From a virus (taxonomy: Duplodnaviria > Heunggongvirae > Uroviricota > Caudoviricetes): a stretch of 64,000 bases of DNA. The position numbers and the translations under genes were made by a program. Below are positions 11,233 to 56,352 of the stretch, in pieces. The stretch lies in IMG/VR virus record IMGVR_UViG_3300029610_000240, one strand, 5' to 3'. The notes under the pieces were generated by a model. That model ran no database searches, had not been told where the DNA came from, and worked only from the letters and a program-made list of their open reading frames with translations. Position 1 is the stretch's first letter, and the number at the start of each line of letters is the position of its first letter.

Positions 11233-11324
11233 GGACTATTTGCCGAGTAGTTCACGAAAATAGAGCACCAGAGATATCCACAGTCAATTTGACTGTGGAT
11301 ATCTAACAAAGGAGAATAATTTTT

Positions 11325-13451: not shown

Positions 13452-13465
13452 AAGGGGATAAAACA

Positions 13466-16843: not shown

Positions 16844-17023
16844 ATGGCACAAACTAAAAGTGACAATGTACAAATAAATATTTCTATTCCTACTGGATGG
16901 AAAACAGAACTTGAAAATCTTGCTCGTATCTATTCTGTTGAAGAAGGAAAAACCATCACTTTTCTTGACTTAATGCGTAGAGGTATTCAGGAAAAATATC
17001 AATTAGGAGAAAAAAGGCAGTGA
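16844..17023 (+). CDS. ribbon-helix-helix (CopG-like) small protein
   Basis: ATG at 16844 behind GGAGGAAAAAA. Beta-strand then two helices: VQINISIPTGWKTELENLARIYSVEEGKTITFLDLMRRGI. Confidence 0.5.
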   Translation: MAQTKSDNVQINISIPTGWKTELENLARIYSVEEGKTITFLDLMRRGIQEKYQLGEKRQ

Positions 17024-17433
17024 GTGAGGAACAATATCATAGTGCTTCACATTGTAAATATTTGATACAGTATCATATCATTTGGTGTCCCAAGTTCAGA
17101 TTTTCAGTATTACAAGGAAATGTCGATATCATTCTTAAACAGATATTACAGAAAATTTGTAATGATTATAAATACAAGATCAAAGCACTCGAAGTGATGC
17201 CAGATCATATACATATTTTCATAGATGTTCCGCAGACAGTTGCTCCTTGTGATGTTGTAAGAACTCTCAAAAGTATCAGTGCTATCGAATTATTTAAAGT
17301 ATTTCCAAAATTAAAACAGTTCTATGCGAAATGCGGAGTATTATGGCCAAGAGGATACTTTGTATCTACTGTCGGACATATAAGCGAAGCTACAGTAATT
17401 AAGTATATTGAGGAGCAGAAAAATGATAAGTGA
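17020..17433 (+). CDS. tnpA: IS200/IS605 Y1 transposase TnpA
   Basis: YHIIWCPKFR, intact HUH (PDHIHIFI) and the catalytic Tyr helix VIKYIEEQ. Confidence 0.9.
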   Translation: MSEEQYHSASHCKYLIQYHIIWCPKFRFSVLQGNVDIILKQILQKICNDYKYKIKALEVMPDHIHIFIDVPQTVAPCDVVRTLKSISAIELFKVFPKLKQFYAKCGVLWPRGYFVSTVGHISEATVIKYIEEQKNDK

Positions 17434-19460: not shown

Positions 19461-19772
19461 ATGAAACAGTATATCGGAATAAAGGTTGTTGCTGCGAGAC
19501 CAATGACAAGAGGTGACTATAATATCTTTCGAGGATGGCAGATTCCGGCAGACGAAGATCCTGCCGATGAAGGATATGTGATGAAATACGAGAATGGACA
19601 TGTGCAATGGTTGCCAAAGGATATGTTTGAGTCTGACTATAAAGAATATGACGAGAGTACCCTGCCGGCAACAGCTATTGGTATGGTAAGTTCAGATTAC
19701 AAAGAATGTTTTCAGGCAGAGTACAAGCAGCTCAGAATTCGTTATGAAAAATTGAAGAGAATGCGTCAATAA
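19461..19772 (+). CDS. hypothetical small protein
   Basis: ATG at 19461 behind GGAGAAAGGAG. Its stop codon directly abuts the IscB element's left hairpin. Confidence 0.5.
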   Translation: MKQYIGIKVVAARPMTRGDYNIFRGWQIPADEDPADEGYVMKYENGHVQWLPKDMFESDYKEYDESTLPATAIGMVSSDYKECFQAEYKQLRIRYEKLKRMRQ

Positions 19773-20044
19773 CCCCGACCTACAGTAATAACTGTTGAGG
19801 TCGGAGCTTGTAAAAGCTCATATTGACTAGCCTAAGTTCTTCGAGAACTACGTTGTTTATGTTATCACACCTGCGAATGATACCATAGTTTGCAGCCTTG
19901 TGTAGGCTCTGTAAAAGTTCTGTGAGGTAGGAACGGTCAACCTAGTATGTTCGATCACGACAAGCATTTACAACATTGGCGAAGGGTAACAAACTTTCAA
20001 AAGAAAGGGACAGCACTTGAGAGTAGCTGTCAAAGGTAAAAACT
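19773..20044 (+). ncRNA. IscB omega-RNA region
   Basis: About 270 nt of non-coding, visibly GC-richer and hairpin-rich sequence immediately 5' of iscB, which is the known position of IscB omega-RNAs. Confidence 0.65.
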
Positions 20045-21319
20045 ATGAGAGTATTTGTATTCAATATGCGTGGCAGACCATTAATGCCATGCTCACAAAG
20101 AAAAGCCAGATTACTCCTAAGGGAAAATAAGGCTATGATTTATAAATATCATCCATTTACGATTCAGCTGACTTATACAACTGGAGAAACAAAGCAGGAC
20201 TGTCATATAGGTATAGACACAGGTTCTAAATATATAGGAGCTGCTGTCAGATCAGAGGATAAGGTTTTTTGGAAAGGCGAAATCGAGCTTCGACAGGATA
20301 TCAGGTCAAATCTTGATACGAAACGTATTTATCGCAGAAGCAGACGAAATCGTAAAACAAGATACCGAAAACCAAGGTTTTTAAATCGTAAGAGAAGAGA
20401 TGAATGGCTTCCACCTAGCTTGCAAAGCAGGATAAATCATACGTTTCATTGGATTGACACATTGAGTAGTTTGGTTCCAAACCCCATTCTTCACATAGAA
20501 GTCGGTAAGTTTGATGTAGCAAAGATGATAAATCCTGAAATCCATGGAGTTGACTATCAACATGGTCAGACATATGGTTTCTTCGATGAAAGGTATTTTG
20601 TTTTTGCAAGAGATAACTACACTTGTCAGTGCTGTGGAAAGTCAAAAAATAAGATTTTGAACACACATCATATCATCTACCGCAGTAATGGCGGAACAAA
20701 CAGAGTTGATAATCTTATTACAGTTTGCACAGATTGTCATACATCGCAGAATCACAGGAAAGGTGGAATATTCTATCAATGGCAGGAGCAGCATAAAAAG
20801 GTAAAACAATACAAAGAACCGCCGTTCATGAATACCTTACGTAAGAGGATATTTGTAGCGTATCCAGATGCTGAGATCACATATGGATCTGAAACAACAC
20901 CAAAACGTAAGGCGATGAAATTGGATAAGACGCACTATAATGATGCGATTGTCATTAGTGGTATCAATGAAATTAAAGAAAATCCTGAAGAATGGTTACT
21001 GATAAAACAATTCCGCAAAAAGAAACGCTCTTTACACGAGGCTACCGCCCGTAAGGGAAGAAAAAAGCCAAACAGAAATCAGACGCGTAACAGTAAGAAT
21101 ACGCCTTATTATAAAGGATTTTATCTTAACGATAAGGTTTCAGTTTTTGGAAAGAGTGGATATATTACAGGATTTACGAGCAATGCGGCATATATAAAAG
21201 ATGAGAACAATGACTATATTACTCTGCCAAACAAAACCTATAAACAGGTCAGCATCAATAAAATGAAGTTGGAATGTCATAACAACAATTGGCAGTACAT
21301 AATAAAAAATGCTGTGTAA
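20045..21319 (+). CDS. iscB: IscB RNA-guided nuclease (PLMP, split RuvC, HNH)
   Basis: PLMP motif (RGRPLMPC), RuvC-I IGIDTGSKYIGAAV, Arg-rich bridge RRSRRNRKTRYRKPRF, RuvC-II LHIEVGKFD, HNH CQCCGK..THHIIYRSNGGTNRVDNLITVCTDCH, RuvC-III HYNDAIV. Confidence 0.9.
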   Translation: MRVFVFNMRGRPLMPCSQRKARLLLRENKAMIYKYHPFTIQLTYTTGETKQDCHIGIDTGSKYIGAAVRSEDKVFWKGEIELRQDIRSNLDTKRIYRRSRRNRKTRYRKPRFLNRKRRDEWLPPSLQSRINHTFHWIDTLSSLVPNPILHIEVGKFDVAKMINPEIHGVDYQHGQTYGFFDERYFVFARDNYTCQCCGKSKNKILNTHHIIYRSNGGTNRVDNLITVCTDCHTSQNHRKGGIFYQWQEQHKKVKQYKEPPFMNTLRKRIFVAYPDAEITYGSETTPKRKAMKLDKTHYNDAIVISGINEIKENPEEWLLIKQFRKKKRSLHEATARKGRKKPNRNQTRNSKNTPYYKGFYLNDKVSVFGKSGYITGFTSNAAYIKDENNDYITLPNKTYKQVSINKMKLECHNNNWQYIIKNAV

Positions 21320-23446: not shown

Positions 23447-23600
23447 CATCCTCTCCCATCTATAGAGGTGGGAGCTTCCCTAACCTCGGCAGGTTTGGTT
23501 CTCGTTCGATAGCACCAATGTGCTAAGCTTAAGCGAGCTAACCCCGTGTGTCCCACGGTTGTATTATGTGAAATTGTGGTTATGCAGTTACTATCCGCAT
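23447..23600 (-). ncRNA. TnpB omega-RNA region
   Basis: Sequence overlapping and extending past the 3' end of tnpB, GC-richer than its surroundings, ending at the element-end hairpin. Confidence 0.55.
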
Positions 23601-24698
23601 TCCCTCATTTCTGATATTGATCGCTGCATTTACATCTCTGTCGTGATGGATTCCACACTGCGGACAATCCCACTGCCTGAGTGCAAGATCCTTTGTTTTC
23701 GCATTCTTGTAACCACAGGCAGAACACATCTGACTGCTTGCAAAAAATCTGTCCACTTTCACAAGTTTTTTCCCTTGTTCCTCAAGTTTATACTTTAGAA
23801 AGGCTGTGAACATTCCCCATCCATTATCCGAAACGGATTTTCCCAATTTCAACGACCGAGACATTGCTTTCATATCCAGATCCTCTATACATACACAATC
23901 ATAGGCATTGGTTATCTGTCTTGACTGCTTATGCAGAAAATCTTTTCGCTGATTGGAAACTTTTTCGTGAAGTTTGGCTACCTTGATTCTCTGTTTCCTG
24001 CGATTGTTCGAACCTTTCTGCATCTTGGAAAGTCTGCGTTGTTCTCTTGCTAATCTTTTCTCTGCGTTCCGGTAATATCCTGGATATGCCGGTTCATTGC
24101 CATTACTGTCACGATATAATCCGTGCATGGAAAAGTCCAGACCTAAAAAACTGTGCATCTCCTTTTCTGGTATCTGATCTTCATACTCAAAAAGGATACT
24201 TGCATAGTATCTTCCGCCTGGTGTCTGGCTGATCGTCACTGATTTCAACCTGTATCCCTTTGGAACAGATCTGTGCTGCTTTAATCGGACTTGTCCGATC
24301 TTTGGCAGTTTCAGATACCCATCCGATATGGTGATGTTGCCATTGATACATATGGTTGAATAGCTGTTTTTATGATTCTTTTTTGATTTGAACCTTGGAA
24401 ATCCTGTTTTCGGCCGTTTGAAAAAGTTCTGAAATGCTGTATCAAGGTGTCGGAGTGATTGCTGTAAGGATATACTATCGACTTCCCGCAAAAATGCGTA
24501 TTCTTCCGTTTTCTTCATTTCAGCCATTTCTTTCGCACAGACAGTATATGTTATATTTGTCTTGTTCTTCTTATACTGCCTGATCCTTCGATTAAGCCAA
24601 TGGTTGTACACCATTCTGACACAGCCGAAAGTCCTGGCAAACAGAATCATCTGCTCATTATTGGGATATATTCTGAATTTATATGCTCTGTTTGCCAT
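23580..24698 (-). CDS. tnpB: TnpB RNA-guided nuclease (IS605 OrfB type)
   Basis: N-terminal AYKFRIYPN..Q, RuvC D (GLDFSMHG), E (CIEDLDMK), Zn finger CSACGY..CPQCG, RuvC-III HDRDVNAAINI. Confidence 0.9.
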   Translation of the reverse strand: MANRAYKFRIYPNNEQMILFARTFGCVRMVYNHWLNRRIRQYKKNKTNITYTVCAKEMAEMKKTEEYAFLREVDSISLQQSLRHLDTAFQNFFKRPKTGFPRFKSKKNHKNSYSTICINGNITISDGYLKLPKIGQVRLKQHRSVPKGYRLKSVTISQTPGGRYYASILFEYEDQIPEKEMHSFLGLDFSMHGLYRDSNGNEPAYPGYYRNAEKRLAREQRRLSKMQKGSNNRRKQRIKVAKLHEKVSNQRKDFLHKQSRQITNAYDCVCIEDLDMKAMSRSLKLGKSVSDNGWGMFTAFLKYKLEEQGKKLVKVDRFFASSQMCSACGYKNAKTKDLALRQWDCPQCGIHHDRDVNAAINIRNEGMRIVTA

Positions 24699-32730: not shown

Positions 32731-32802
32731 TGATGATGACTTAATTGATGATTTAAGACAAAGTTTTAAAAATATGTAACAGATATATGTAAAAACAAAT
32801 GG
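32731..32802 (+). CRISPR. guide module A: one spacer-like segment plus one repeat
   Basis: Repeat GTTTTAAAAATATGTAACAGATATATGTAAAAACAAATGG (32763..32802), preceded by TGATGATGACTTAATTGATGATTTAAGACAAA. Confidence 0.6.
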
Positions 32803-32804
32803 CA

Positions 32805-32872
32805 GTTACATAATGCGTAAGAATAAGAATGTATCGAATAAGTCTATATAAGTAGAATCTACCAGGTGGTAG
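32805..32872 (+). ncRNA. tracrRNA-like scaffold A
   Basis: Anti-repeat GTTACATAATGCGTAAGAAT pairs with ATATGTAAC of the repeat. Nexus AAGAATGTATCGAAT. Hairpins TCTA/TAGA and CTACC-AGG-TGGTAG (32859..32872). Confidence 0.65.
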
Positions 32873-32904
32873 AAAATATTAAAACTAACAGGAGATAATA
32901 TTTC

Positions 32905-36133: not shown

Positions 36134-36277
36134 GTTTTGTAATCGTGTAAAAGCACTTAAATATGCTGTAGAAGATGTTTTGTTACTGTGCAACGGAAAT
36201 ATGTCTAAATGATTTAATTTATTACTACTTTTTATTCCTTTGTTTTGTAACCGTGTAACGGAGACATGTCTAAATGG
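36134..36277 (+). CRISPR. guide module B mini-array (3 repeats)
   Basis: Repeats at 36134..36165 (decayed), 36177..36212 and 36242..36277 (GTTTTGTAACCGTGTAACGGAGACATGTCTAAATGG). Spacers are 11 nt and 29 nt (TTTAATTTATTACTACTTTTTATTCCTTT). Confidence 0.7.
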
Positions 36278-36356
36278 TCAAATTATTTTGCACGGTGCGT
36301 AAAAATAAGAAATTATCGAATAGGCTCGTTAAAACGAGAGCTGCCGTGTGGCAGTA
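36278..36356 (+). ncRNA. tracrRNA-like scaffold B
   Basis: TCAAATTATT linker. Anti-repeat TTGCACGGTGCGTAAAAAT pairs with ACCGTGTAA. Nexus AAGAAATTATCGAAT. Hairpins CTCGT-TAAA-ACGAG and CTGCC-GTGT-GGCAG. Confidence 0.75.
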
Positions 36357-36499
36357 AATCTAAGCTACATCAATTTCAAGATTATAATTTGGGAGGAGAA
36401 AATGTTTGGGAAAATTAATGTTTTTTATTTATTGTTGGCTATATATTTGTATTATTTGTTATATTCTTGCAGCCAAGAACAAGAAAGAAGGTGTAGTGT

Positions 36500-43880: not shown

Positions 43881-44159
43881 ACTTAAAAATAGAGTATTAT
43901 TTATTAGCATTTTCTGATATAATATAAGCAGTGTTAGAGAGATATATGTAACACCATCGTTTATTAGAAAAGAATATACAGGGAAATTGCATCATTTTAT
44001 ACAATTTCTAAAGCGAGAGGTATTCATATATCTCTCGTTTTTTTTATGTGAAGAGTATTCGATTGAATGCTCTTTTTTCTTTGTAATAATCTAAACGATT
44101 TGTTACAGATCATCTCCTGGCATGAGTAACAAAAAGCTAATATGAAAGGAAGATGCTCT

Positions 44160-45038
44160 ATGATGAAAGAAAAAGGACAATTCAAGAAAAAGTTTGTACA
44201 GAAGATTGCTACAATTATGATGGCAGCAGCTATGGTTGTGAGTGGTGGATTTGGAGTTGCACCAGCAGCGGATCATTCAGTATCCGTATATGCAACAGAT
44301 AATGCATATCGTGGTTATCATGTAACTTCTACGAAGACGGAAAAGAAACCTGCGACCTCATCTACAAAGAAAAGCAAGTTGTCAAAAAATCATGCAAACA
44401 AAACAACAAAAACAGTAACAACTACGACAACTAGCACAGGTTACAAGCATGTTGTTGCAAAAGACACGAAAACTGTAACAAAGACTGTCGTAACTACAAC
44501 AAAGGTATATTACAAAAAGACCTTAACAACAACTGTAAAAAAACAGGTAACTGTAACGACAACAACGATCAATTATCTGAGAAGCGGTAATCCAGATTAT
44601 ATGAAATTAATGGGAACAGTAAATACTCAGATTCCTACAAAGGTGGGGAATGCAATGAAAGCAGATGGATTAAAAGTAGTCCTGAATCCTAATTTATCTT
44701 ATGATGGAGTATATTCTGCTTCCAGAAATTCCATTGAAATGAAAAATAATGTAGATTATGGTTTTATGCATGAAATTGGACACTATGTGGATCGTAAGAC
44801 AGGATATGTTTCAGGCAGTACAGAATTTAAAAATATCTTTAATTCTGAAAAATCCAAATACAAAGGATTTTATTCTGACTGGAATTTAGATAGTGGAAAT
44901 TATGCAAGAACAAGCACTTCTGATTATTTTGCAGAATGTTTTAGAGATTACTACTTTAGTGCAAACTCCAGAAGCAAGTTAAAAGCAAATTGTCCTAAAT
45001 CTTATAGTTTTATTCAGAAAACAATCAATAAGTTCTAA
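44160..45038 (+). CDS. secreted zinc metalloprotease, anthrax-lethal-factor/PPEP (M34)-like domain
   Basis: Signal peptide, T/K-rich linker, MHEIGHYVD and downstream SDYFAECFRDYYFS. Confidence 0.6.
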   Translation: MMKEKGQFKKKFVQKIATIMMAAAMVVSGGFGVAPAADHSVSVYATDNAYRGYHVTSTKTEKKPATSSTKKSKLSKNHANKTTKTVTTTTTSTGYKHVVAKDTKTVTKTVVTTTKVYYKKTLTTTVKKQVTVTTTTINYLRSGNPDYMKLMGTVNTQIPTKVGNAMKADGLKVVLNPNLSYDGVYSASRNSIEMKNNVDYGFMHEIGHYVDRKTGYVSGSTEFKNIFNSEKSKYKGFYSDWNLDSGNYARTSTSDYFAECFRDYYFSANSRSKLKANCPKSYSFIQKTINKF

Positions 45039-45131
45039 ACAATCAATATTAATTTATCTCAGGAGTCAGTAAGCAGATGCTTACTGGCTCTTTTAGTATA
45101 CAGAAAAAAATGAGGAGAAGAACACGAAACA

Positions 45132-45959
45132 ATGGAAAACAAAAATAACATAAGCAAGTTAACAAAAATCTTATTTGTTGCACTAGCAATGGGAATGATC
45201 TTGATTTCCCCATATCAATTATGCAATGTGGCAGCAGCTGATAAATACTATGGATACCAGAAGAAAACAAAGAGTGTAAAAACAAAGATAACAGCATCTA
45301 AAAAGAAAGTACGTATAAAAAAGAAATATAGAGGAACAAGAACCACAAAAAATGTTGAAAGCAAATGGTCTGATTCTTATAAATATACATATGGAGATGC
45401 AAAAAAGATACATATAAAGACAGTTATAACCACTCAAAAAACATATCACGGATATTTTATTACGACAAAGCGAAATATTAAAACGACAACTACAGAAAAT
45501 AAAATCAATTTTGTTCGCAATCAGAAGAAAGTTAGTTTTAATGGCCGAATTCCAAGTAATGTACAGAAACAATTGAATAGTGAAAAAATACAGATCGTCA
45601 TAAATCCAAAATTGAAACATAATGGAATCTTTTCTCTGAAAGATAAGAAAATATCCATAAAATATAACTCCGACTATGTTTTATTACATGAAATAGGACA
45701 TTTTGTAAATTACAAAAATGGTGATGCTGCACATAGTTCAGAATTTTATAATATCTACTTAAAAGAAAGAAGTAAATATCGTGGATTCTATAACGATTAT
45801 TATGAAAAGTTAGACCTTGGAAAATATGAAAGAACTACTCCTGCGGAATATTTTGCCGGAGCATATCGGGATTATTATTTTAGCAAAGATTCTCGGAATC
45901 GATTAAAAAAATATTGTCCAAATACTTATAATTTTATTACTAAATACCATTTTATTTAA
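45132..45959 (+). CDS. secreted zinc metalloprotease, paralogue of 44160..45038
   Basis: Signal peptide, LHEIGHFVN and AEYFAGAYRDYYFS. Confidence 0.6.
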   Translation: MENKNNISKLTKILFVALAMGMILISPYQLCNVAAADKYYGYQKKTKSVKTKITASKKKVRIKKKYRGTRTTKNVESKWSDSYKYTYGDAKKIHIKTVITTQKTYHGYFITTKRNIKTTTTENKINFVRNQKKVSFNGRIPSNVQKQLNSEKIQIVINPKLKHNGIFSLKDKKISIKYNSDYVLLHEIGHFVNYKNGDAAHSSEFYNIYLKERSKYRGFYNDYYEKLDLGKYERTTPAEYFAGAYRDYYFSKDSRNRLKKYCPNTYNFITKYHFI

Positions 45960-46126: not shown

Positions 46127-49100
46127 GTGCAGAATGGATTTTTAGGAATAACTGTTAGTAGTGAACAGGTTGGTTGGGCAGTTACAAATCCCAAATATGA
46201 GTTAGAACGTGCATCTCGAAAAGATTTATGGGGTGTAAGGCTTTTTGATAAAGCAGAAACAGCGGAAGATCGAAGAATGTTCCGTACAAACAGACGATTA
46301 AATCAGAGAAAAAAGAACAGAATACATTATCTTAGAGATATTTTCCATGAGGAAGTAAATCAAAAAGATCCTAACTTTTTTCAGCAATTAGATGAAAGCA
46401 ATTTCTGTGAAGATGATCGTACTGTAGAGTTTAATTTTGATACTAATCTTTATAAGAATCAGTTTCCAACAGTGTATCATTTAAGAAAATATCTAATGGA
46501 AACAAAAGATAAACCAGATATTCGTCTGGTATACTTAGCTTTTTCAAAATTTATGAAAAATCGAGGACATTTCTTATACAAAGGAAATCTTGGAGAGGTT
46601 ATGGACTTTGAAAATTCCATGAAAGGCTTTTGTGAAAGTTTAGAGAAATTTAATATTGACTTCCCTACATTATCAGATGAACAGGTAAAAGAAGTCCGAG
46701 ATATCTTATGTGATCATAAAATTGCTAAAACTGTGAAAAAGAAAAACATCATTACTATTACAAAAGTAAAAAGTAAGACAGCAAAAGCATGGATTGGACT
46801 GTTTTGTGGTTGCAGCGTTCCTGTTAAAGTATTATTTCAGGATATCGATGAAGAAATTGTAACGGATCCAGAAAAAATCTCATTTGAAGATGCTTCTTAT
46901 GATGATTGTATTGCAAATATTGAAAAGGGTGTCGGTATTTATTATGAAGCTATTGTTTCTGCAAAGATGCTTTTTGACTGGTCTATCCTGAATGAAATTT
47001 TAGGTGACCATCAGTTATTAAGTGATGCAATGATCGCAGAATACAATAAGCATCATGATGATTTAAAGCGTTTACAGAAGATCATTAAAGGAACTGGCAG
47101 TAGAGAATTATATCAGGATATCTTTATTAATGATGTTTCTGGAAATTATGTATGCTACGTTGGTCATGCAAAAACAATGAGTAGTGCAGATCAGAAACAG
47201 TTTTATACATTTTTAAAAAATCGATTAAAAAATGTGAATGGTATTTCATCAGAAGATGCAGAATGGATTGATACAGAGATTAAAAACGGTACTTTACTAC
47301 CAAAACAGACAAAACGTGATAACAGTGTTATTCCGCATCAATTACAGTTAAGGGAATTTGAATTAATTCTTGATAACATGCAGGAAATGTATCCATTCTT
47401 AAAAGAAAACAGAGAAAAATTATTAAAAATCTTCAATTTCGTTATTCCTTATTATGTAGGTCCGCTAAAGGGCGTTGTAAGAAAAGGAGAGAGTACAAAC
47501 TGGATGGTGCCTAAAAAAGATGGTGTGATTCATCCATGGAATTTCGATGAAATGGTAGACAAAGAAGCGTCTGCGGAATGTTTTATTTCCCGAATGACAG
47601 GAAATTGTAGTTATTTATTTAATGAAAAAGTTCTTCCAAAGAATTCTCTTCTTTATGAGACATTTGAGGTATTAAATGAGCTAAATCCATTAAAGATCAA
47701 TGGAGAACCTATCAGCGTGGAATTAAAACAGAGAATTTATGAACAGCTTTTCTTGACAGGGAAAAAAGTTACAAAAAAATCTCTGACAAAATATCTTATC
47801 AAGAATGGCTATGACAAAGATATTGAATTATCAGGTATTGATAATGAATTTCACAGCAATCTAAAATCTCATATTGATTTTGAGGATTACGATAATCTAT
47901 CTGATGAAGAAGTTGAACAGATTATTCTTAGAATTACAGTATTTGAAGATAAGCAGCTGTTAAAAGATTATTTAAATCGCGAGTTTGTAAAGCTCTCTGA
48001 GGATGAGAGAAAACAGATTTGCTCATTATCTTATAAAGGATGGGGAAACTTATCAGAAATGCTATTAAACGGTATTACTGTAACAGATTCCAATGGTGTA
48101 GAAGTTTCTGTAATGGATATGCTGTGGAATACAAACTTAAATCTGATGCAGATCTTAAGTAAGAAATATGGATATAAAGCAGAAATCGAACATTACAATA
48201 AAGAACATGAAAAAACCATTTATAATCGTGAAGATTTGATGGATTATTTAAATATTCCACCGGCTCAGCGTAGGAAGGTAAATCAGCTGATTACGATAGT
48301 AAAATCTCTCAAAAAGACATATGGAGTTCCAAATAAGATTTTCTTCAAAATAAGCAGAGAACATCAGGATGATCCAAAGAGAACTTCATCCAGAAAAGAA
48401 CAGCTAAAATATTTATACAAATCCTTAAAATCAGAAGATGAAAAACATCTTATGAAAGAGCTTGATGAATTGAACGATCATGAATTATCCAATGATAAAG
48501 TTTATCTTTATTTTCTACAGAAAGGACGCTGCATTTATTCTGGCAAGAAATTAAATCTTTCAAGATTAAGAAAATCTAATTATCAGAATGATATTGACTA
48601 CATTTATCCATTATCTGCAGTAAATGATCGTTCTATGAATAATAAGGTATTAACGGGAATCCAGGAGAATCGAGCAGACAAGTATACCTATTTTCCAGTT
48701 GATTCAGAAATTCAGAAAAAAATGAAGGGATTTTGGATGGAACTGGTTCTGCAGGGATTTATGACAAAGGAGAAATACTTCCGATTATCCAGAGAAAATG
48801 ATTTTTCAAAGAGCGAACTTGTTAGCTTTATTGAACGTGAAATTTCAGATAATCAGCAAAGTGGAAGAATGATTGCTTCTGTATTACAGTATTATTTCCC
48901 TGAATCAAAGATTGTATTTGTAAAAGAAAAGCTGATTTCTTCCTTTAAGAGGGATTTCCATTTAATTAGTAGTTATGGTCACAATCATTTACAAGCTGCA
49001 AAAGATGCTTATATTACGATTGTAGTTGGAAATGTATATCATACAAAATTTACAATGGACCCAGCAATCTATTTTAAGAATCATAAGAGAAAAGATTATG

Positions 49101-50065
49101 ATCTGAACCGATTATTCTTAGAAAATATCAGCAGAGATGGACAGATTGCATGGGAAAGTGGTCCATATGGGTCAATTCAGACGGTTCGAAAAGAATATGC
49201 TCAAAACCATATTGCTGTTACAAAAAGAGTCGTGGAAGTAAAAGGCGGCTTATTTAAGCAGATGCCATTAAAAAAAGGACATGGCGAATATCCATTAAAA
49301 ACCAATGATCCTAGATTTGGCAATATCGCACAGTATGGAGGGTATACGAATGTCACAGGTTCCTATTTTGTATTAGTAGAATCAATGGAGAAAGGGAAAA
49401 AACGTATTTCTTTAGAATATGTTCCAGTATATCTTCATGAGCGTTTAGAGGATGATCCTGGACATAAACTGTTAAAAGAATATCTGGTTGATCACAGAAA
49501 ACTTAATCATCCAAAGATTTTACTTGCAAAAGTAAGAAAAAACTCATTACTTAAGATTGACGGTTTTTATTATCGTTTAAATGGTCGAAGTGGAAATGCT
49601 CTTATCCTTACAAATGCAGTGGAATTGATCATGGATGACTGGCAGACAAAAACAGCAAACAAGATTTCTGGATACATGAAACGCAGAGCTATTGATAAGA
49701 AAGCAAGGGTTTATCAAAATGAATTCCATATTCAGGAATTAGAACAGCTTTATGATTTTTATTTAGATAAATTAGAGAATGGTGTTTATAAAAATCGTAA
49801 GAATAATCAGGCTGAATTAATTCACAACGAAAAAGAACAGTTTATGGAACTCAAGACAGAAGATCAGTGTGTATTATTGACTGAGATTAAAAAGCTTTTT
49901 GTATGTTCTCCAATGCAGGCAGACCTTACATTGATTGGTGGCAGCAAACACACAGGAATGATTGCTATGTCAAGCAATGTTACAAAAGCAGATTTTGCAG
50001 TCATTGCGGAAGATCCTTTAGGACTTAGAAACAAAGTAATTTATTCTCATAAAGGTGAGAAGTAA
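46127..50065 (+). CDS. cas9: Cas9 homologue (type II-A-like size) with substituted RuvC and HNH catalytic residues
   Basis: GTG start 7 nt after AAGGAGGA. Conserved: bridge helix RRMFRTNRRLNQRKKNRIHYLRDIF, FPTVYHLRKYL, NRGHFLYKG, IPHQLQL, IPYYVGPL, PWNFDEMVDKEASAECFISRMT, YKGWGNLS. Catalytic columns: LGITVSSEQVGWAV (D10 is T), IFFKISREHQ (E762 is K), DIDYIYPLS (H840 is Y), QAAKDAYITIVVG (H983 is A, D986 kept). Confidence 0.9.
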   Translation: MQNGFLGITVSSEQVGWAVTNPKYELERASRKDLWGVRLFDKAETAEDRRMFRTNRRLNQRKKNRIHYLRDIFHEEVNQKDPNFFQQLDESNFCEDDRTVEFNFDTNLYKNQFPTVYHLRKYLMETKDKPDIRLVYLAFSKFMKNRGHFLYKGNLGEVMDFENSMKGFCESLEKFNIDFPTLSDEQVKEVRDILCDHKIAKTVKKKNIITITKVKSKTAKAWIGLFCGCSVPVKVLFQDIDEEIVTDPEKISFEDASYDDCIANIEKGVGIYYEAIVSAKMLFDWSILNEILGDHQLLSDAMIAEYNKHHDDLKRLQKIIKGTGSRELYQDIFINDVSGNYVCYVGHAKTMSSADQKQFYTFLKNRLKNVNGISSEDAEWIDTEIKNGTLLPKQTKRDNSVIPHQLQLREFELILDNMQEMYPFLKENREKLLKIFNFVIPYYVGPLKGVVRKGESTNWMVPKKDGVIHPWNFDEMVDKEASAECFISRMTGNCSYLFNEKVLPKNSLLYETFEVLNELNPLKINGEPISVELKQRIYEQLFLTGKKVTKKSLTKYLIKNGYDKDIELSGIDNEFHSNLKSHIDFEDYDNLSDEEVEQIILRITVFEDKQLLKDYLNREFVKLSEDERKQICSLSYKGWGNLSEMLLNGITVTDSNGVEVSVMDMLWNTNLNLMQILSKKYGYKAEIEHYNKEHEKTIYNREDLMDYLNIPPAQRRKVNQLITIVKSLKKTYGVPNKIFFKISREHQDDPKRTSSRKEQLKYLYKSLKSEDEKHLMKELDELNDHELSNDKVYLYFLQKGRCIYSGKKLNLSRLRKSNYQNDIDYIYPLSAVNDRSMNNKVLTGIQENRADKYTYFPVDSEIQKKMKGFWMELVLQGFMTKEKYFRLSRENDFSKSELVSFIEREISDNQQSGRMIASVLQYYFPESKIVFVKEKLISSFKRDFHLISSYGHNHLQAAKDAYITIVVGNVYHTKFTMDPAIYFKNHKRKDYDLNRLFLENISRDGQIAWESGPYGSIQTVRKEYAQNHIAVTKRVVEVKGGLFKQMPLKKGHGEYPLKTNDPRFGNIAQYGGYTNVTGSYFVLVESMEKGKKRISLEYVPVYLHERLEDDPGHKLLKEYLVDHRKLNHPKILLAKVRKNSLLKIDGFYYRLNGRSGNALILTNAVELIMDDWQTKTANKISGYMKRRAIDKKARVYQNEFHIQELEQLYDFYLDKLENGVYKNRKNNQAELIHNEKEQFMELKTEDQCVLLTEIKKLFVCSPMQADLTLIGGSKHTGMIAMSSNVTKADFAVIAEDPLGLRNKVIYSHKGEK

Positions 50066-50106
50066 GTTTTCATATTTGTTCGGAAAATTCATAATCATAT
50101 CGAACG

Positions 50107-50259
50107 GCTTTGGAACTGCGTAGAACATGATATGTCTTATGGCTAAAAGAATTACAGGTGCATATTTTGAACTGTGTAAAACATGGCATATGGGAGAATT
50201 GGCAACGACTGGAACAGAACACAGTTTTGAAACTGTATAAAACATGACATGTCTTATGG
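50107..50259 (+). CRISPR. guide module C mini-array (3 repeats), starting 42 nt after the cas9 stop
   Basis: Repeats at 50107..50142 (6 mismatches), 50164..50193 (30 nt, decayed) and 50224..50259 (GTTTTGAAACTGTATAAAACATGACATGTCTTATGG). Spacers: 21 nt CTAAAAGAATTACAGGTGCAT and 30 nt GAGAATTGGCAACGACTGGAACAGAACACA. Confidence 0.75.
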
Positions 50260-50336
50260 TTCAAATTATTTATACAGTACGTGAAAATAAGAAATTATCG
50301 AATAAACTCGTTTAGACGAGAACTGCTAGAGGCAGT
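50260..50336 (+). ncRNA. tracrRNA-like scaffold C
   Basis: Anti-repeat TTTATACAGTACGTGAAAAT gives a 10-bp perfect pairing with ACTGTATAAA. Nexus AAGAAATTATCGAAT. Hairpins CTCGT-TTAG-ACGAG and CTGC-TAGAG-GCAG (50323..50335). Confidence 0.8.
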
Positions 50337-50352
50337 AATTGCAGAAAATGTC

Positions 50353-50385
50353 ATGAACCCCAAGCGACTTCGTCGGCCGGGGGTT
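50353..50385 (+). terminator. GC-rich hairpin after module C
   Basis: AACCCC..CGAC-TTC-GTCG..GGGGTT nested stem followed by a short T run. Confidence 0.45.
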
Positions 50386-50448
50386 TACGCACCAATTTGA
50401 TAATATTTCTAATCATATATTACCTTATATGATTAATGGAGAAAATAG

Positions 50449-50612: not shown

Positions 50613-50957
50613 ATGAAGATTACAAGAACGATTAAATTTAAAGAATATATCCTCGGATATTTAGAAAAATTAGAGGTTCATGAAGTTCGACGCATTGAAA
50701 AAGCCGGACGATTAAGCCGTGACATTATCAAAGAGGAATCTGAAAAATGCGGACACAAATTAATGATTCTTGATACGATTGAAAAAGAAAGACGTTATGA
50801 ATGTTCATTAGAAGATTTCTTATCCGTTGCAAGAGAGATTCCACTAAAAAATCAGGAGACTGTTAATACAGAAGAAAAAAATGTTCAGGAAGATAATTCA
50901 GAGGATTCTAAGTCTAAGTTAGGCGATTCTGACTGTGCCCCTTGGATTGAAGATTAA
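50613..50957 (+). CDS. hypothetical protein
   Basis: 114-aa ORF lying between guide modules C and D. Confidence 0.5.
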   Translation: MKITRTIKFKEYILGYLEKLEVHEVRRIEKAGRLSRDIIKEESEKCGHKLMILDTIEKERRYECSLEDFLSVAREIPLKNQETVNTEEKNVQEDNSEDSKSKLGDSDCAPWIED

Positions 50958-50961
50958 TGTT

Positions 50962-51117
50962 ATTTTGAGAAATGATTGCAAATGTGATCGTAGCGTACCT
51001 TACTTCACAGCTTAGTTTTGGAACTATGTAAAATCAAATGATTGCAAATGGGCAGAGAGAAAATTTGAAAAATTGTCTGTGTTTTGGAACTATGTAAAAT
51101 CAAATGATTGCAAATGG
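50962..51117 (+). CRISPR. guide module D mini-array (3 repeats)
   Basis: Repeats at 50962..50985 (internally deleted), 51015..51051 and 51081..51117 (GTTTTGGAACTATGTAAAATCAAATGATTGCAAATGG). Spacers: GATCGTAGCGTACCTTACTTCACAGCTTA and GCAGAGAGAAAATTTGAAAAATTGTCTGT. Confidence 0.8.
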
Positions 51118-51193
51118 TCAAAGTAATTGCATGGCGTGTAAAAATAAGAATTTATCGAAATAATTTGCTCCGGCGAAATCTGCAAGATGCAGA
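51118..51193 (+). ncRNA. tracrRNA-like scaffold D
   Basis: TCAAAGTAA linker. Anti-repeat TTGCATGGCGTGTAAAAAT pairs with CTATGTAA through two G:U. Nexus AAGAATTTATCGAAAT. Hairpins TTTGC-TCCG-GCGAA and TCTGC-AAGA-TGCAGA. Confidence 0.75.
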
Positions 51194-51197
51194 AATC

Positions 51198-51265
51198 AAG
51201 CTGATCGATGCTTTACATATTTATCTATTTCAATATTTCTTCAACCATATACATTGATCAGCTTT
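51198..51265 (+). terminator. long-loop inverted repeat with AGCTGATC core (possible terminator)
   Basis: AAGCTGATCGATG pairs with CATTGATCAGCTT (13 bp, one G:U) around a 42-nt loop. A related element lies at 54054..54131. Confidence 0.4.
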
Positions 51266-51290: not shown

Positions 51291-51445
51291 ATAAAATTGA
51301 ATGATTCCAATGGATAGTCGAAAAAGAATTGGATAGTCGACGGGTTTTAGAATAGTGTAAAATTGAATGATTCTAAGGGTTAGATACTCCACTAGATAGC
51401 AAAGTACTTGTTTTAGAATAGTGTAAAATTAAATGATTCTAAGGG
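51291..51445 (+). CRISPR. guide module E mini-array (3 repeats)
   Basis: Repeats at 51292..51313 (3' half only), 51344..51379 (GTTTTAGAATAGTGTAAAATTGAATGATTCTAAGGG) and 51410..51445. Spacers: ATAGTCGAAAAAGAATTGGATAGTCGACGG and TTAGATACTCCACTAGATAGCAAAGTACTT. Confidence 0.8.
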
Positions 51446-51528
51446 GTCAAATAGATTCTATACAATGCGTGAAAATAAGAAACTTATCGAACAAACCTGT
51501 GTAGGAAACAGGAACTGCCGAGGGCAGT
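51446..51528 (+). ncRNA. tracrRNA-like scaffold E
   Basis: GTCAAATAGAT linker, anti-repeat TCTATACAATGCGTGAAAAT, nexus AAGAAACTTATCGAAC. Hairpins CCTGT-GTAGGAA-ACAGG and CTGCC-GAG-GGCAG (51515..51527). Confidence 0.75.
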
Positions 51529-51823
51529 AAAAATAAAAAGCATATTTTTATTATGTTTTATTTTATGATGAAGAGGTGGATGATGGTTCTATCTCTGTTT
51601 TTGAGAAAATGGATGCATTGCAAAATGCAACAATCTTAGAAGTACAAATACATATTGATGACTTAAAAGATAAATTGGAAGAAGTAAAATTTACTCTTAA
51701 AATATCAGGTTTGTATTTGAAGAAGATAATTTTATGGATTCTTATTATAAATCTTATACGTTACCGATTGTATATCACAAAAACTATTTATTAAGTATTA
51801 ACAATGATAAGGAATAACAATAA

Positions 51824-53755
51824 ATGGAAATAGATTACAGAAAAGAATTAAATAAGAGTCAATATGAAGCTGTTACAACGACAGAAGGACCAGTCCTAAT
51901 CCTTGCCGGTGCCGGAACTGGCAAAACTCGTTGTATGGTATATCGTGTGGCATATCTGATTGAAAAAGGCGTGTCACCCAATAATATCTTATTATTGACC
52001 TTTACAAATAAAGCAGCAAATGAAATGAAGCAAAGGGCAGCAGATATGCTTGATGAACGATGTAGTCAAATTACTGCATGTACATATCATTCATTCTGTG
52101 CAAAGATGCTTCGCAAATATTCACAACTGATTGGAATTCAATCAGATTATACAATTATTGATCCGGGAGATTGTGCAGATATCATATCGATCATCGAAAC
52201 AGAACACGGTATGGATAAAGTAAAAGATTTTCCAAGATCATCTCAACTGGTATCAGCACATAGCAAAGCCTTAAATACGAATCAGTCATTAGAGGATACT
52301 TTGTTTGATATGCTCGGTAAATGGAAGTATATGGAAATCGAAAGATTCATTCCAGATATAAAGAAAATCTTAGCGGATTATCAATCATACAAAAAACAAA
52401 ACAACATGATGGATTATGATGATTTGCTAATCAATTTTATATCTGTATTGAAAAGAAACCCTTCTATAAAGAATAAATTAGCTGATATTTATCAGTATAT
52501 TATGATCGACGAATATCAGGATTCTAATTATTTACAGGAAAAGATTATTTTTATGTTACGTGAAAAGAATCGTAACTTAGCAGTGGTAGGTGATGATTAC
52601 CAATGCATCTATGGATTTAGAGGAAGTATGGTAGAAAATATCATTAATTTTCCACAAAAGATGTCCGGATGTAAAGTTGTTTACTTAACACAGAATTATC
52701 GCAGCAATCAAGAGATCATGGATTTATCCAATATTGTTATGAAAAAACATTCACTGGAAGGTTTTTTTAAAAAGCTTGTCGCAACTCATGTGGCCAATAT
52801 TCAGCCATTGCTAGTTCGATCAGAGGACGAGGGCGAAGAAGCTTCTTATATTTTAAATAAGATTATGGCATTACATGATGAAGAAGAGATTCCGTATCAT
52901 GAAATTTGTGTTCTTGAAAGAAGTTCTTATCATTCTGTAAGACTAGAAGCACTTTTAAATAAAATGAAAATCCCATATGACAAATATGGTGGAATGAAGT
53001 TTTTTGATTATGATCATATCAAAAACTTCTTATGCTTTTTGCGATGTCAGATAAATCCACATGATGAAATTGCGTGGTTTCGACTATTAAAGTTATTTGA
53101 TGGTATTGGAAATGTTTATGCCAGAAATATCGCAGCAACATGTAAAACTCTTGGATTAGAGGGACTTGTTCAACACAAATACATAAAAAGAAAATTTCAG
53201 CCGGATCTTGAAAATTTAAAGAGTTTTATTGAAAAGCTTAATGATCAAGATTTTCAGATCGAATTGCAAAGCATTAAATCATTTTATTCACGTTTAATGG
53301 ACATTACATTAATGCTGATGAAAACATCGGAGAAGAAACGTAGGGAGCTTGCTAGAGCAAATAAACAAGCGGTCCGCGATTTTGATACACTGATTGAAAT
53401 GGCAGATGGATATGATTCTCCAGTGACATTTCTGGAAGAAATAATGCTTGAAGCCAGTCCTCAGAAAGAGGAAGAGGAAGATCGAATGGTTATATCTACA
53501 ATTCATTCCGCAAAAGGCTTAGAGTTTCACTCTGTTTTTGTTATGAACTGCGTAGATACAATGTTTCCATCTACAGATAAAGATCAGATTGGAACAGTAG
53601 AAGATAACGAAGAGTTGAGATGCTTCTATGTGGCAATAACACGGGCAAAAGAACGATTATTTTTAATGGCACCGAAATATATAGCCAAATTTGGATGTGT
53701 TGAAGAGGGAATTATCTCCCATTTTATTAGTGATGTTTTTCAAGTAAAGGAGTAA
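51824..53755 (+). CDS. UvrD/PcrA-type SF1 DNA helicase
   Basis: Walker A AGAGTGKT, motif II IMIDEYQDSN, QNYRSNQEI, late STIHSAKGLEF and FYVAITRAKERL. Confidence 0.85.
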   Translation: MEIDYRKELNKSQYEAVTTTEGPVLILAGAGTGKTRCMVYRVAYLIEKGVSPNNILLLTFTNKAANEMKQRAADMLDERCSQITACTYHSFCAKMLRKYSQLIGIQSDYTIIDPGDCADIISIIETEHGMDKVKDFPRSSQLVSAHSKALNTNQSLEDTLFDMLGKWKYMEIERFIPDIKKILADYQSYKKQNNMMDYDDLLINFISVLKRNPSIKNKLADIYQYIMIDEYQDSNYLQEKIIFMLREKNRNLAVVGDDYQCIYGFRGSMVENIINFPQKMSGCKVVYLTQNYRSNQEIMDLSNIVMKKHSLEGFFKKLVATHVANIQPLLVRSEDEGEEASYILNKIMALHDEEEIPYHEICVLERSSYHSVRLEALLNKMKIPYDKYGGMKFFDYDHIKNFLCFLRCQINPHDEIAWFRLLKLFDGIGNVYARNIAATCKTLGLEGLVQHKYIKRKFQPDLENLKSFIEKLNDQDFQIELQSIKSFYSRLMDITLMLMKTSEKKRRELARANKQAVRDFDTLIEMADGYDSPVTFLEEIMLEASPQKEEEEDRMVISTIHSAKGLEFHSVFVMNCVDTMFPSTDKDQIGTVEDNEELRCFYVAITRAKERLFLMAPKYIAKFGCVEEGIISHFISDVFQVKE

Positions 53756-53791: not shown

Positions 53792-53965
53792 GATTTGAAT
53801 CCATGTAAAAATGTAAAGCAAATGATTCCAAATGGCAATCTTCTCGAATTGTCGTGTAGGCAAAGTTTTGAAACCATGTAAAAAAATGATTCCAAATGGG
53901 TATGCATTGGTGTTTGAAGCGTTTGTGTGTTTTGGAACCATGTAAAAGCAAATGATTCCAAATGG
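53792..53965 (+). CRISPR. guide module F mini-array (3 repeats)
   Basis: Repeats at 53792..53835 (internal duplication), 53865..53899 (2-nt deletion) and 53929..53965 (GTTTTGGAACCATGTAAAAGCAAATGATTCCAAATGG). Spacers: CAATCTTCTCGAATTGTCGTGTAGGCAAA and GTATGCATTGGTGTTTGAAGCGTTTGTGT. Confidence 0.8.
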
Positions 53966-54043
53966 TTAAAAGCAGATTACATGGTGTGTCAAAATAAGAA
54001 CTTATCGAATAGATCTATATAAATGGAATCTGCCAGGTGGCAG
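53966..54043 (+). ncRNA. tracrRNA-like scaffold F
   Basis: Anti-repeat TTACATGGTGTGTCAAAAT gives a 9-bp perfect pairing with ACCATGTAA. Nexus AAGAACTTATCGAAT. Hairpin 2 CTGCC-AGGT-GGCAG (54030..54043). Hairpin 1 is weak and resembles that of scaffold A. Confidence 0.75.
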
Positions 54044-54053
54044 AAAAAAACTG

Positions 54054-54131
54054 AAAAAGCTGATCAATAATAACTGTTGTTACCATAATATTAATTTATG
54101 TTTTTGTATTTTGTCTATTGATCAGCTTTTT
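54054..54131 (+). terminator. 16-bp perfect long-loop inverted repeat with AGCTGATC core
   Basis: AAAAAGCTGATCAATA pairs perfectly with TATTGATCAGCTTTTT around a 46-nt loop. Confidence 0.5.
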
Positions 54132-55411: not shown

Positions 55412-55543
55412 ATATCATCAAAGAGGTTTTGGTTAACTAAAGGTTGATTATCGGTATATCATTGTTCGGTGTCTGTAGACAGCATTTTTTCAAATCTATA
55501 GTTGTTATAAAATAAGAGACACTTTCATGTATAGTGGAGTTTA

Positions 55544-55570
55544 GTTTCAGAAGTTTATAAAAACAGATAA
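55544..55570 (+). CRISPR. guide module G: single divergent repeat
   Basis: GTTTCAGAAGTTTATAAAAACAGATAA, preceded by the candidate guide GAGACACTTTCATGTATAGTGGAGTTTA. Confidence 0.5.
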
Positions 55571-55580
55571 CTATTAATGA

Positions 55581-55658
55581 TTATCTGTTTCATGGATTGT
55601 GTAAAAATAAGCAAATTAGCGAATATGCTCGTTGAAACGAGAGCTGTTAGATAACAGC
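55581..55658 (+). ncRNA. tracrRNA-like scaffold G
   Basis: TTATCTGTTT pairs perfectly with AAACAGATAA across a 10-nt loop. GATTGTGTAAAAAT, nexus variant AAGCAAATTAGCGAAT. Hairpins CTCGT-TGAA-ACGAG and GCTGTTA-GA-TAACAGC. Confidence 0.6.
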
Positions 55659-55710
55659 TAAAAATGTAACTATATAAATTAATTTGTAAATTATAGGGAG
55701 GACTATTTTA

Positions 55711-55875: not shown

Positions 55876-56091
55876 ATGATGGATATTTACACAAGATTAT
55901 TGATGATGGATATTATGATATCGGCAGTAGCTATTATGGTAAATATCTTAGAAAATTGTCCGATTAACGGTAAAATACACAATATTTCAAGAATTTTAAT
56001 CATATCTAGTATTGCTGCAGACATTATCTTACTTTTAGGAATTGTCAATACGTTCATCTCATACAGTATCCTGTATTCTTATTTTAAATAA
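55876..56091 (+). CDS. small membrane protein
   Basis: 71 aa with two hydrophobic helices. Its stop overlaps the first, partial repeat of module H. Confidence 0.45.
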   Translation: MMDIYTRLLMMDIMISAVAIMVNILENCPINGKIHNISRILIISSIAADIILLLGIVNTFISYSILYSYFK

Positions 56092-56094
56092 GAT

Positions 56095-56249
56095 ACAGAA
56101 GAATCATTGTCGATGTTAAACATATTATGTGAAACATTATTGTCAGGCTTTAGAAGTCTATAAAACAGAATCATTGTCAATGAGATCAAATTCTTTATGA
56201 CAACGCAATACAGCTTTAGAAGTCTATAAAACAGAATCATTGTCAATGG
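56095..56249 (+). CRISPR. guide module H mini-array (3 repeats)
   Basis: Repeats at 56095..56115 (3' half only), 56147..56183 and 56213..56249 (GCTTTAGAAGTCTATAAAACAGAATCATTGTCAATGG). Spacers: TTAAACATATTATGTGAAACATTATTGTCAG and GATCAAATTCTTTATGACAACGCAATACA. Confidence 0.8.
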
Positions 56250-56325
56250 TCAAATAAGCAGACTGCGTAAAAATAAGAATTTTATCGATATTGCTCGTGT
56301 AGTCGAGAACTGCCAAGTGGCAGCA
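56250..56325 (+). ncRNA. tracrRNA-like scaffold H
   Basis: TCAAATAAG linker, anti-repeat CAGACTGCGTAAAAAT, nexus AAGAATTTTATCGAT. Hairpins CTCG-TGTAGT-CGAG and CTGCC-AAGT-GGCAG (56310..56323). The next gene's RBS follows 18 nt later. Confidence 0.75.
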
Positions 56326-56352
56326 ACATTTATAATAAAAAGGAGGAATTAT

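Follow-up and report, generated by a model that had tools for sequence, protein, structure and literature searches.

What does a cas9 gene do on a mobile element when it is followed at once by a short CRISPR array of its own with a fused guide scaffold? The question is raised by a 64,000-nucleotide stretch of DNA recorded as a Caudoviricetes virus (IMG/VR record IMGVR_UViG_3300029610_000240; "the window" denotes this whole stretch), in which the cas9 stop codon is followed by repeats, spacers, an anti-repeat and a tracrRNA (trans-activating CRISPR RNA) tail, together called module C. We regard it as rather probable that module C is the cas9-proximal member of eight tracrRNA-fused guide modules which serve a natural nuclease-dead Cas9 (dCas9), carried on a Tn916-like element of gut Lachnospiraceae and binding its targets without cleavage. 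Below, the contigs used for comparison are designated by L numbers and Cas9 variants by P numbers; the coordinates of all features are collected in Table 1.

The open reading frame (ORF) ahead of module C encodes a complete Cas9. It starts at GTG and is 1312 aa long, and Pfam detected Cas9_REC (1.5e-138), Cas9_PI (2e-57), Cas9-BH, HNH_4 and, weakly, Cas9_RuvC. In the PDB search residues 5-1300 were covered, the top structure being 9jwk (7e-216), the Cas9 of Faecalibaculum rodentium (FrCas9; PMC12926199), followed by Streptococcus pyogenes Cas9 (SpCas9) at about 1e-135. The domain architecture of Cas9 was present in full, with a split RuvC, bridge helix, REC lobe, HNH insert and a domain interacting with the protospacer-adjacent motif (PAM). 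The residues on which cleavage by Cas9 depends (D10, E762, H983 and D986 of RuvC; D839, H840 and N863 of HNH) were not all found: T9 stands for D10, K741 for E762, A957 for H983 and Y825 for H840, and the equivalents of D986, D839 and N863 were retained. This numbering was obtained by BLASTP against SpCas9 fragments, whose internal numbering was found to be consistent. The catalytic motifs were also compared by aligning the window protein and its clade (P0002 with 89% identity, P0019-21 with 71-74%) with active relatives of about 42% identity, which retain all the tested catalytic residues. The dead clade carries GIT or GLT in place of GLD at RuvC-I, KISR or KVSR in place of EMAR at RuvC-II, QAAKD in place of HHAKD at RuvC-III and DIDY in place of DIDH at HNH, P0020 being the only member of the clade to keep the histidine.

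Whole-domain losses were also observed. In variant P0008, which was found in two independent samples (L020 and L021, gene at 10001-13471 in both), residues 742-897, that is the HNH domain, have been removed exactly and in frame (window 48351-48818); outside the deletion the gene is 99.7-99.9% identical in DNA to that of the window. The HNH Pfam domain was missing from 16 further Cas9 clusters as well (96-99% identity, 1151-1159 aa, with slightly different boundaries), P0008 being the one HNH-less variant examined at the DNA level. When the window gene was compared with P0002 (dS about 0.67), the ratio of nonsynonymous to synonymous substitution rates (dN/dS) was 0.05-0.14 across all Cas9 domains, and the REC lobe, bridge helix and PAM-interacting domain were under strong purifying selection. 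Judged by its sequence, the window Cas9 is predicted to be nuclease-dead by every known catalytic residue except the retained equivalents of D986, D839 and N863. Since purifying selection was strong in every domain, it is read as a functional protein that gave up cleavage and not as a pseudogene. A different combination was seen in L024, the Cas9 of which (P0020) keeps DIDHIYP in HNH and has its RuvC residues replaced; this protein could be a natural target-strand nickase.

On the RNA side, the tail of module C matched the Rfam family RAGATH-30 (RF03055) over the full model (1-59) with 75.7 bits, the threshold being 59.5. The Rfam tracrRNA family RF02348 was matched end-to-end at 50225-50342, weakly (22.8 bits, E 0.37) and far below its threshold. 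RAGATH-30 occurred eight times in the window, always on the + strand (starts at 32817, 36299, 50281, 51138, 51469, 53988, 55601 and 56267), and all eight copies scored above the threshold (64.7-78.6 bits). Ahead of seven of them stand between one and three 36-nt repeats specific to the module, and in these seven modules an anti-repeat complementary to the module's own repeat lies about 9 nt past the last repeat; module C is the third of the eight (M3). In Rfam, RF03055 models the 59-nt tail only and is listed simply as a small RNA (sRNA) gene, and neither an assigned function nor any mention of RAGATH-30 was found in the literature searched. The copies in the window, by comparison, form the 3′ part of a tracrRNA after a variable anti-repeat, with mini-arrays in seven of the eight and one set beside cas9. 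The array-less M7 carries a short stem-loop (CAGAUAA/UUAUCUG) ahead of its scaffold in place of the 36-nt repeat and array, and is the most single-guide RNA (sgRNA)-like unit.

The structure of the guides was determined by covariation in an alignment of 14 distinct modules from the window and its relatives. RNAalifold recovered the stem between repeat and anti-repeat as well as the two hairpins of the tail; of the 17 pairs, 13 showed compensatory changes. When the structure was given explicitly (lower stem GUUUU/AAAAU, internal loop, 10-bp upper stem and two hairpins), 93.7% of the cells paired and 12 pairs covaried; none of 500 shuffles reached the observed values, and slid partners paired at 35-44%. 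The anti-repeat thus pairs with the CRISPR repeat, as that of a tracrRNA must, and the guide fold of module C is real. The minimum free energy (MFE) structure of the segment from S2 through the tail, taken alone, was also the guide structure. S. pyogenes guides have the same layout, GUUUU-bulge-stem ... AAAAUAAG-nexus-hairpins. When the duplex energies of cognate and non-cognate repeats and anti-repeats were set out as a matrix, the diagonal stood out only in part, since the repeats of several modules are alike.

Much of what the original prediction had said of module C was borne out. It had placed the first repeat 42 nt past the cas9 stop, and R1 begins at the 42nd base after it; the module is contiguous with cas9, the scaffold-proximal spacer it quoted is exact, and the terminal repeat, anti-repeat and scaffold do make up a natural single-guide-like precursor. 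It had also credited module C with the cleanest single-guide geometry, which is a question of taste and was not upheld: M2, M6 and modules of the relatives pair more stably, and M7 is the truly compact array-less unit. Module C has a perfect 10-bp upper stem yet the most decayed upstream units, and its geometry by itself is no proof of a mature sgRNA.

The modules were then compared between strains in 12 contigs that encode the identical Cas9 or the 99.7%-identical HNH-deleted variant. The spacers of M4 and M6 changed between strains (window against L001-L010 and L020), also where Cas9 was 100% identical; M2, module C, M5 and M8 were nearly fixed, a missing repeat-spacer unit being the largest difference. 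Module C had the same S2, R3, anti-repeat and scaffold in all 12 contigs, which come from different samples, apart from one transition, a G-to-A change in S2 in two of them. Because module C is invariant between strains and its upstream units have decayed, it is best read as a hard-wired guide and not as an adapting array, directed against a target for which no match was detected. No Pfam match to Cas1, Cas2 or Csn2 was obtained among the scanned window ORFs of at least 100 aa (a few such ORFs were not scanned), and cas1, cas2 and csn2, the adaptation genes of a type II-A system, were absent from the gene tables of the related loci. The nearest active relatives lie in ordinary cas9-cas1-cas2-csn2 loci with a 21-repeat array, in which no match to RAGATH-30 was obtained. 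The change of spacers in M4 and M6 without cas1 and cas2 on the element is to be explained either by adaptation in trans or by cassette exchange; type II-A systems with GTTTTAGAACCATG-type repeats in the hosts could be the source of Cas1-Cas2-Csn2 in trans.

Targets were found for the sister arrays. The window holds 12 spacers in all, and of eight IMG/VR scans three led to a protospacer without mismatch. M4 S1 matched L033 at 30/30 and L034-36 at 29/30, with the 3′ flank AGAAGTTGG (AGAAG); its protospacer falls within a MazF-like gene that belongs to an early operon adjoining a CI/Cro switch, with the gene order cro-like gene, ..., DUF2800 exonuclease, Gp2.5-like single-stranded DNA-binding protein and DNA polymerase A. 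Spacer 3 of L016 matched L026-29 at 30/30 within the DUF2800 exonuclease gene of a like phage module (flank CAAACTCAAC, CAAAC), and an M4 spacer of L001 matched at 30/30 L040, an IscB-carrying mobile-element contig (flank GAAAATGGCA, GAAAA). The three 3′ flanks share N-R-A-A, a motif drawn post hoc from three sites and different from the PAM of FrCas9, NNTA. Foreign-matching spacers beside a shared flank were thus seen in the sister arrays, and the spacers of module C had no match. The 12 window spacers had no match in the window itself, either at full length or as 14-nt seeds (at most two mismatches for 14 nt), and when concatenated they had none among the PLSDB plasmids; against GenBank phages only chance matches of 20-23 nt were obtained (E at least 2). 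Module C had been put forward, together with cas9, as the most likely minimal unit for reconstitution. It is the least informative module in this respect, its guides having no identifiable target or PAM; for M4 spacer 1, by contrast, both a fully matching phage protospacer and its flank are known.

With regard to transcription, it had been claimed that no terminator intervenes between cas9 and the array, and indeed no terminator-like site was called on the + strand between the stop codon and R1. Within the gap, TTTTCA-17-CATAAT (50067-50095) bears a weak resemblance to a promoter, and the cas9 stop codon is spanned by a weak 7-bp hairpin that is followed by the U-rich GUUUUCAUAUUU, so that a separate promoter or partial termination may exist there. 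All lineages of the clade have retained a post-cas9 module. The array of L016 begins right at the cas9 stop codon, and in L022 a single repeat lies 26 nt past the stop, the post-cas9 module there consisting of one repeat and the scaffold. These gaps leave no room for a separate promoter, which favours read-through from cas9, and the sequence makes co-transcription of cas9 and module C plausible.

The end of the transcript was a different matter. The GC-rich hairpin that had been noticed after the scaffold is present, and it lies on a 50-nt indel that is absent from L001, L002 and L008 (three of 12 relatives), in which the module is otherwise identical. As the end of the unit it could not be upheld, being a strain-variable insertion and not a conserved terminator: only three U follow the hairpin, and its stability was no better than that of shuffles (z = -1.4). 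Module C therefore lacks a conserved intrinsic terminator made of GC hairpin and U-tract. The insertion is GC-rich within an AT-rich spacer region and is found in the window and in most relatives; a repeated element was considered for the hairpin and rejected, as it occurs only once in the window. None of the eight modules has a U-tract after its scaffold, the last hairpin being followed by A-rich sequence in all eight, and after most tails the ribosome-binding site of the next gene comes within 30-100 nt. With no U-tract at the end of any tail, the guides are probably cut out of longer transcripts. A repeat-internal promoter, as in type II-C, was also considered; a promoter-like TAAAAT motif was found in some repeats, inconsistently between modules. 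An inverted repeat that is conserved, AAGCTGATCAAT ... ATTGATCAGCTT with T's behind it, was observed directly after the variable M4 (51198-51264) and M6 (54054-54131) of the window, and likewise after the post-cas9 array in L016 (6082-6254) and in L024 (8786-8952); it does not follow module C. Its role could be that of a terminator with a long loop, or it could have to do with the uptake of spacers.

Table 1. Positions of cas9, the parts of module C and its sister modules in the window.
Feature	Coordinates	Strand	Remarks
cas9, full length, predicted nuclease-dead	46127..50065	+	Pfam, PDB search, alignment with active relatives, BLASTP against SpCas9 fragments, dN/dS
Gap from cas9 stop to first repeat, 41 nt	50066..50106	+	No called terminator; weak promoter-like pair
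Repeat R1, 36 nt	50107..50142	+	Degenerate
Spacer S1, 22 nt, CTAAAAGAATTACAGGTGCATA	50143..50164	+	Shortened; no target detected
Repeat R2, 29 nt	50165..50193	+	Internal deletions
Spacer S2, 30 nt, GAGAATTGGCAACGACTGGAACAGAACACA	50194..50223	+	Scaffold-proximal guide; no target detected
Terminal repeat R3, 36 nt	50224..50259	+	Bases 1-5 form the lower and 9-18 the upper stem with the anti-repeat
Linker TTCAAATTA, 9 nt	50260..50268	+	Loop of the natural single guide, from repeat 3′ half to anti-repeat
Anti-repeat TTTATACAGTACGTGAAAAT	50269..50288	+	10-bp upper stem, ACGUG/GAA internal loop, 5-bp lower stem
tracrRNA tail (Rfam RAGATH-30)	50281..50338	+	AAAAUAAG, nexus-like stretch, two hairpins; no U-tract after it
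GC-rich 50-nt insertion	50350..50399	+	Hairpin 50355-50386; strain-variable, outside the module
M1	32763..32875	+	Single repeat fused to scaffold
M2	36134..36357	+	
M4	50949..51195	+	Partial repeat, S1 (50985-51014), repeat, S2, repeat fused to tracrRNA
M5	51293..51530	+	Two fixed spacers
M6	53792..54046	+	Three repeats; spacers strain-dependent
M7	55539..55660	+	Compact hairpin and scaffold, array-less
M8	56080..56326	+	Two spacers

A working order can be proposed from these data. Module C would be transcribed from the + strand, probably within cas9 and longer operon transcripts. As the covariation shows, the 5′ half of R3 folds onto the anti-repeat 28 nt downstream to give the lower stem, bulge, upper stem, AAAAUAAG, nexus and two-hairpin tail, which would put S2 with its 30 nt in the guide position of an sgRNA, the upstream repeats being alternative partners for the same anti-repeat. 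By analogy with canonical type II biology, the mature guide, in one or two pieces, would be freed by host ribonuclease III and trimming nucleases. The loaded dead Cas9 would then bind PAM-flanked DNA (approximately N-R-A-A) without cutting and would block transcription or replication as engineered dCas9 does. Its targets, to judge by the sister modules, would be phages and other mobile elements, notably the early lytic and replication operon of temperate phages. By such non-cutting binding the element might silence resident and incoming phages while the lysogenic host survives, and cutting may have been given up since cleavage would kill recipients with targeted prophages. As Cas9 is nuclease-dead by its residues, the predicted outcome is repression instead of killing.

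Several observations weigh against this proposal. The HNH domain has a dN/dS of 0.05, that is, it is under purifying selection, and P0020 retains the HNH histidine; a residual or different HNH function may exist, and the loss of cleavage is itself deduced from substitutions and deletions. The MFE structure of the whole of module C does not give the guide fold, and the support for the fold therefore comes from comparison and not from energy. Of the two phage guides for which the target gene is defined, one pairs with the one strand and the other with the other, as seen from the direction of transcription (n = 2), so there is no sign of a non-template-strand preference, which is a property of dCas9 roadblocks. 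S1 and S2 were without a target in the window, the related loci, isolate phages, plasmids, IMG/VR, GTDB genomes and JGI metagenomes. Whatever turned up for them was 20-22 nt long and at chance level. For S1, IMG/VR returned nothing. When the PAM-proximal 20-mer of S2 was used, there was no match in IMG/VR, five matches in GTDB genomes with the remaining 10 nt at chance level, and one family of three related contigs in JGI metagenomes, also at chance level; its PAM-distal 20-mer gave two IMG/VR contigs at 22/30 without a seed match. Lastly, because the upstream repeats and S1 have decayed, part of module C may be a relic.

Taken to its end, this last point becomes the main rival to the hard-wired guide, namely that module C as a whole is a decaying relic in which only the tracrRNA matters, either in trans for the repeats of other modules or as a stabiliser of the protein, and in which the spacers direct nothing. 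The degenerate R1 and R2, the cutting of S1 to 22 nt, the missing protospacers, the reduced module of L022 and the fact that the variable phage-matching arrays are M4 and M6 all agree with it. We nevertheless consider it unlikely, for S2, R3, the anti-repeat and the scaffold have stayed the same in the 12 contigs save the one transition, and the changes in R1 and R2, as read from the sequence, mostly keep the pairing by G-U wobbles: R1, with 78-80% identity to the other repeats, is still able to form a duplex with the anti-repeat in which there is one mismatch besides G-U wobbles. In addition, the anti-repeat of module C prefers its own repeat (-10.9 kcal/mol) to those of the other modules (-6.1 kcal/mol or weaker) and would therefore be a poor partner for them in trans.

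A regulatory role appears more doubtful still. Module C would then be a guide that steers its own or the host's Cas9 to a promoter, for auto-repression of cas9 or for shutdown of host CRISPR. There are precedents in tracr-L of S. pyogenes, a natural single guide that auto-represses cas9 (bioRxiv 10.1101/2020.05.21.102756), and in phage vsgRNAs, short-guide RNAs of Cas9-less phages (Feussner et al., bioRxiv 10.64898/2026.06.01.729453). Like module C, these carry a repeat-like segment and tracrRNA on one transcript with an sgRNA-like fold; they are used for binding without cleavage, and vsgRNAs too occur on mobile elements. The position directly beside cas9 and the fixed, conserved guide with a single-guide fold on a mobile element speak for the same kind of use. 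However, tracr-L and vsgRNAs have guides of 11-14 nt, work with an active host Cas9 and target the cas9 promoter, whereas here the spacers have the full 30 nt, the arrays are partly adapting and the dead protein is encoded by the element. No exact seed of at least 10 nt from the PAM-proximal (3′) end of S1 or S2 was found in the 64-kb window, the region upstream of cas9 included, so module C offers neither the guide of about 11-13 nt matching the cas9 promoter with a PAM that marks tracr-L nor, with cas9 adjacent to it, the absence of an own cas9 that marks vsgRNAs. The nearest active Cas9 relatives are only about 42% identical and their loci gave no match to RAGATH-30, which makes cross-loading onto a host Cas9 doubtful.

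Least credible of all is that the system still destroys DNA with module C as guide, by non-canonical residues (an HNH fold with Tyr for His) or by a partner such as the UvrD-like protein after cas9, since the phage-matching spacers as in ordinary immunity, the purifying selection on HNH, the histidine of P0020 and a helicase recalling DinG of type IV-A are set against the clade-wide replacement of three of the four RuvC catalytic residues and (P0020 excepted) of the HNH general base, the persistence of whole-HNH deletions in otherwise identical elements and the absence of the helicase beside cas9 in L016 and L024.

The carrier is best read as a Tn916-like integrative element of human-gut Lachnospiraceae. 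At the downstream end, the gene order runs through DUF6906, an Xis/HTH_17 protein and a tyrosine integrase into host genes, the integrases of L001, L020 and L022 being of Tn916 type; the right end of the window (60.9-63.8 kb) looks chromosomal, and among the flanking genes a copper ATPase shares about 75% identity with proteins of Lachnospiraceae and Roseburia. A known phage was ruled out by megablast, in which known phages gave no match to the window. The exact Cas9 protein belongs to a cluster of 2780 member sequences and was indexed in 76 blocks of assemblies, from the human gut and elsewhere; the element itself is abundant in gut metagenomes. LPXTG surface proteins were also found in the window.

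Other genes of the element were recorded as well. A UvrD/Rep-family helicase (51824-53755) lies between M5 and M6; L001-L010 and L022, like the window, have such a helicase after cas9. In the window (44142-45959), L016, L017 and L024 alike, the dead cas9 is immediately preceded by one or two genes with an ATLF domain (anthrax lethal factor-like metalloprotease), and these in turn by a gene for a papain-like protease that has a lectin domain. The same element also carries another RNA-guided nuclease, unrelated to Cas9, a 424-aa IscB (RRXRR and HNH) with a HEARO RNA (the IscB omega RNA, 112 bits) directly upstream of it (19765-21319). TnpB was found at 23580-24698 on the - strand, IS200 Y1 transposases at 7056-7493 and 17020-17433, and a restriction-modification pair at 13979-16359, in which the gene for an Eco57I-like N6 methyltransferase comes first and that for a BsuBI/PstI-type restriction endonuclease second.

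Compared with known type II-A systems (S. pyogenes and FrCas9), the locus shares the order of Cas9 domains (RuvC, bridge helix, REC, HNH, RuvC and PAM-interacting domain), 36-nt repeats of the GTTTTAGA...ATGGTTCCAAAGG type with 30-nt spacers, the guide plan (lower stem GUUUU/AAAAU, bulge, upper stem, AAAAUAAG and hairpins) and, in the sister arrays, a 3′ flanking motif at the protospacers. It differs in its replaced catalytic residues and sometimes deleted HNH, and in that no cas1, cas2 or csn2 was detected. Furthermore, its tracrRNA is not a separate gene: each array has one joined in cis to its last repeat, and eight dispersed modules with diverged, co-varying repeat/anti-repeat pairs and no terminator after the tail are carried on an integrative element. 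In its predicted working, though not in family membership, the dead-Cas9 system resembles the binding-only effectors and their relatives, namely type V-M Cas12m, type IV-A, Cas12k, dCas12f-sigmaE and TldR. These have lost target cleavage and act by occupying DNA, and are often found on plasmids or mobile elements without adaptation genes, with spacers against competing elements. To our knowledge, all of them belong to Cas12/TnpB or class 1 lineages. The literature searched held no binding-only example of Cas9 lineage, and nothing on a natural dCas9 or a nuclease-deficient Cas9 on conjugative elements; the vsgRNA preprint mentions neither RAGATH nor dead Cas9, and its precedents of natural repressors are only Cas12- or TnpB-derived (bioRxiv 10.64898/2026.06.01.729453). 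By our analysis the system is of type II by descent, has most of the cleavage residues of RuvC and the HNH general base replaced, shows none of the adaptation genes of type II-A among the ORFs scanned, and would work like type V-M or type IV.

In its widest form the proposal is more tentative, and we put it somewhat short of even chances. The locus would be the Cas9-lineage counterpart of types IV and V-M, an integrative and conjugative element (ICE) with a dead Cas9 and several orthogonal tracrRNA-fused arrays (RAGATH-30), some of them gaining spacers without cas1-cas2 of their own, which silences the lytic and replication operons of temperate phages as well as rival elements without breaking DNA and so enters lysogens safely, with module C as a hard-wired guide. 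If this is true, a natural dCas9 with natural single-guide-like RNAs, some with phage-matching guides, would be added from the Cas9 lineage to the binding-only effectors, and the orphan motif RAGATH-30 would gain a function. The eight mutually diverged repeat/anti-repeat pairs for one protein might also find use in multiplexed CRISPR interference (CRISPRi). The question would be raised of how arrays without their own Cas1-Cas2 gain spacers. For the biology of these gut bacteria, it would mean that a conjugative element tames prophages by silencing them and thereby spares its lysogenic recipients.

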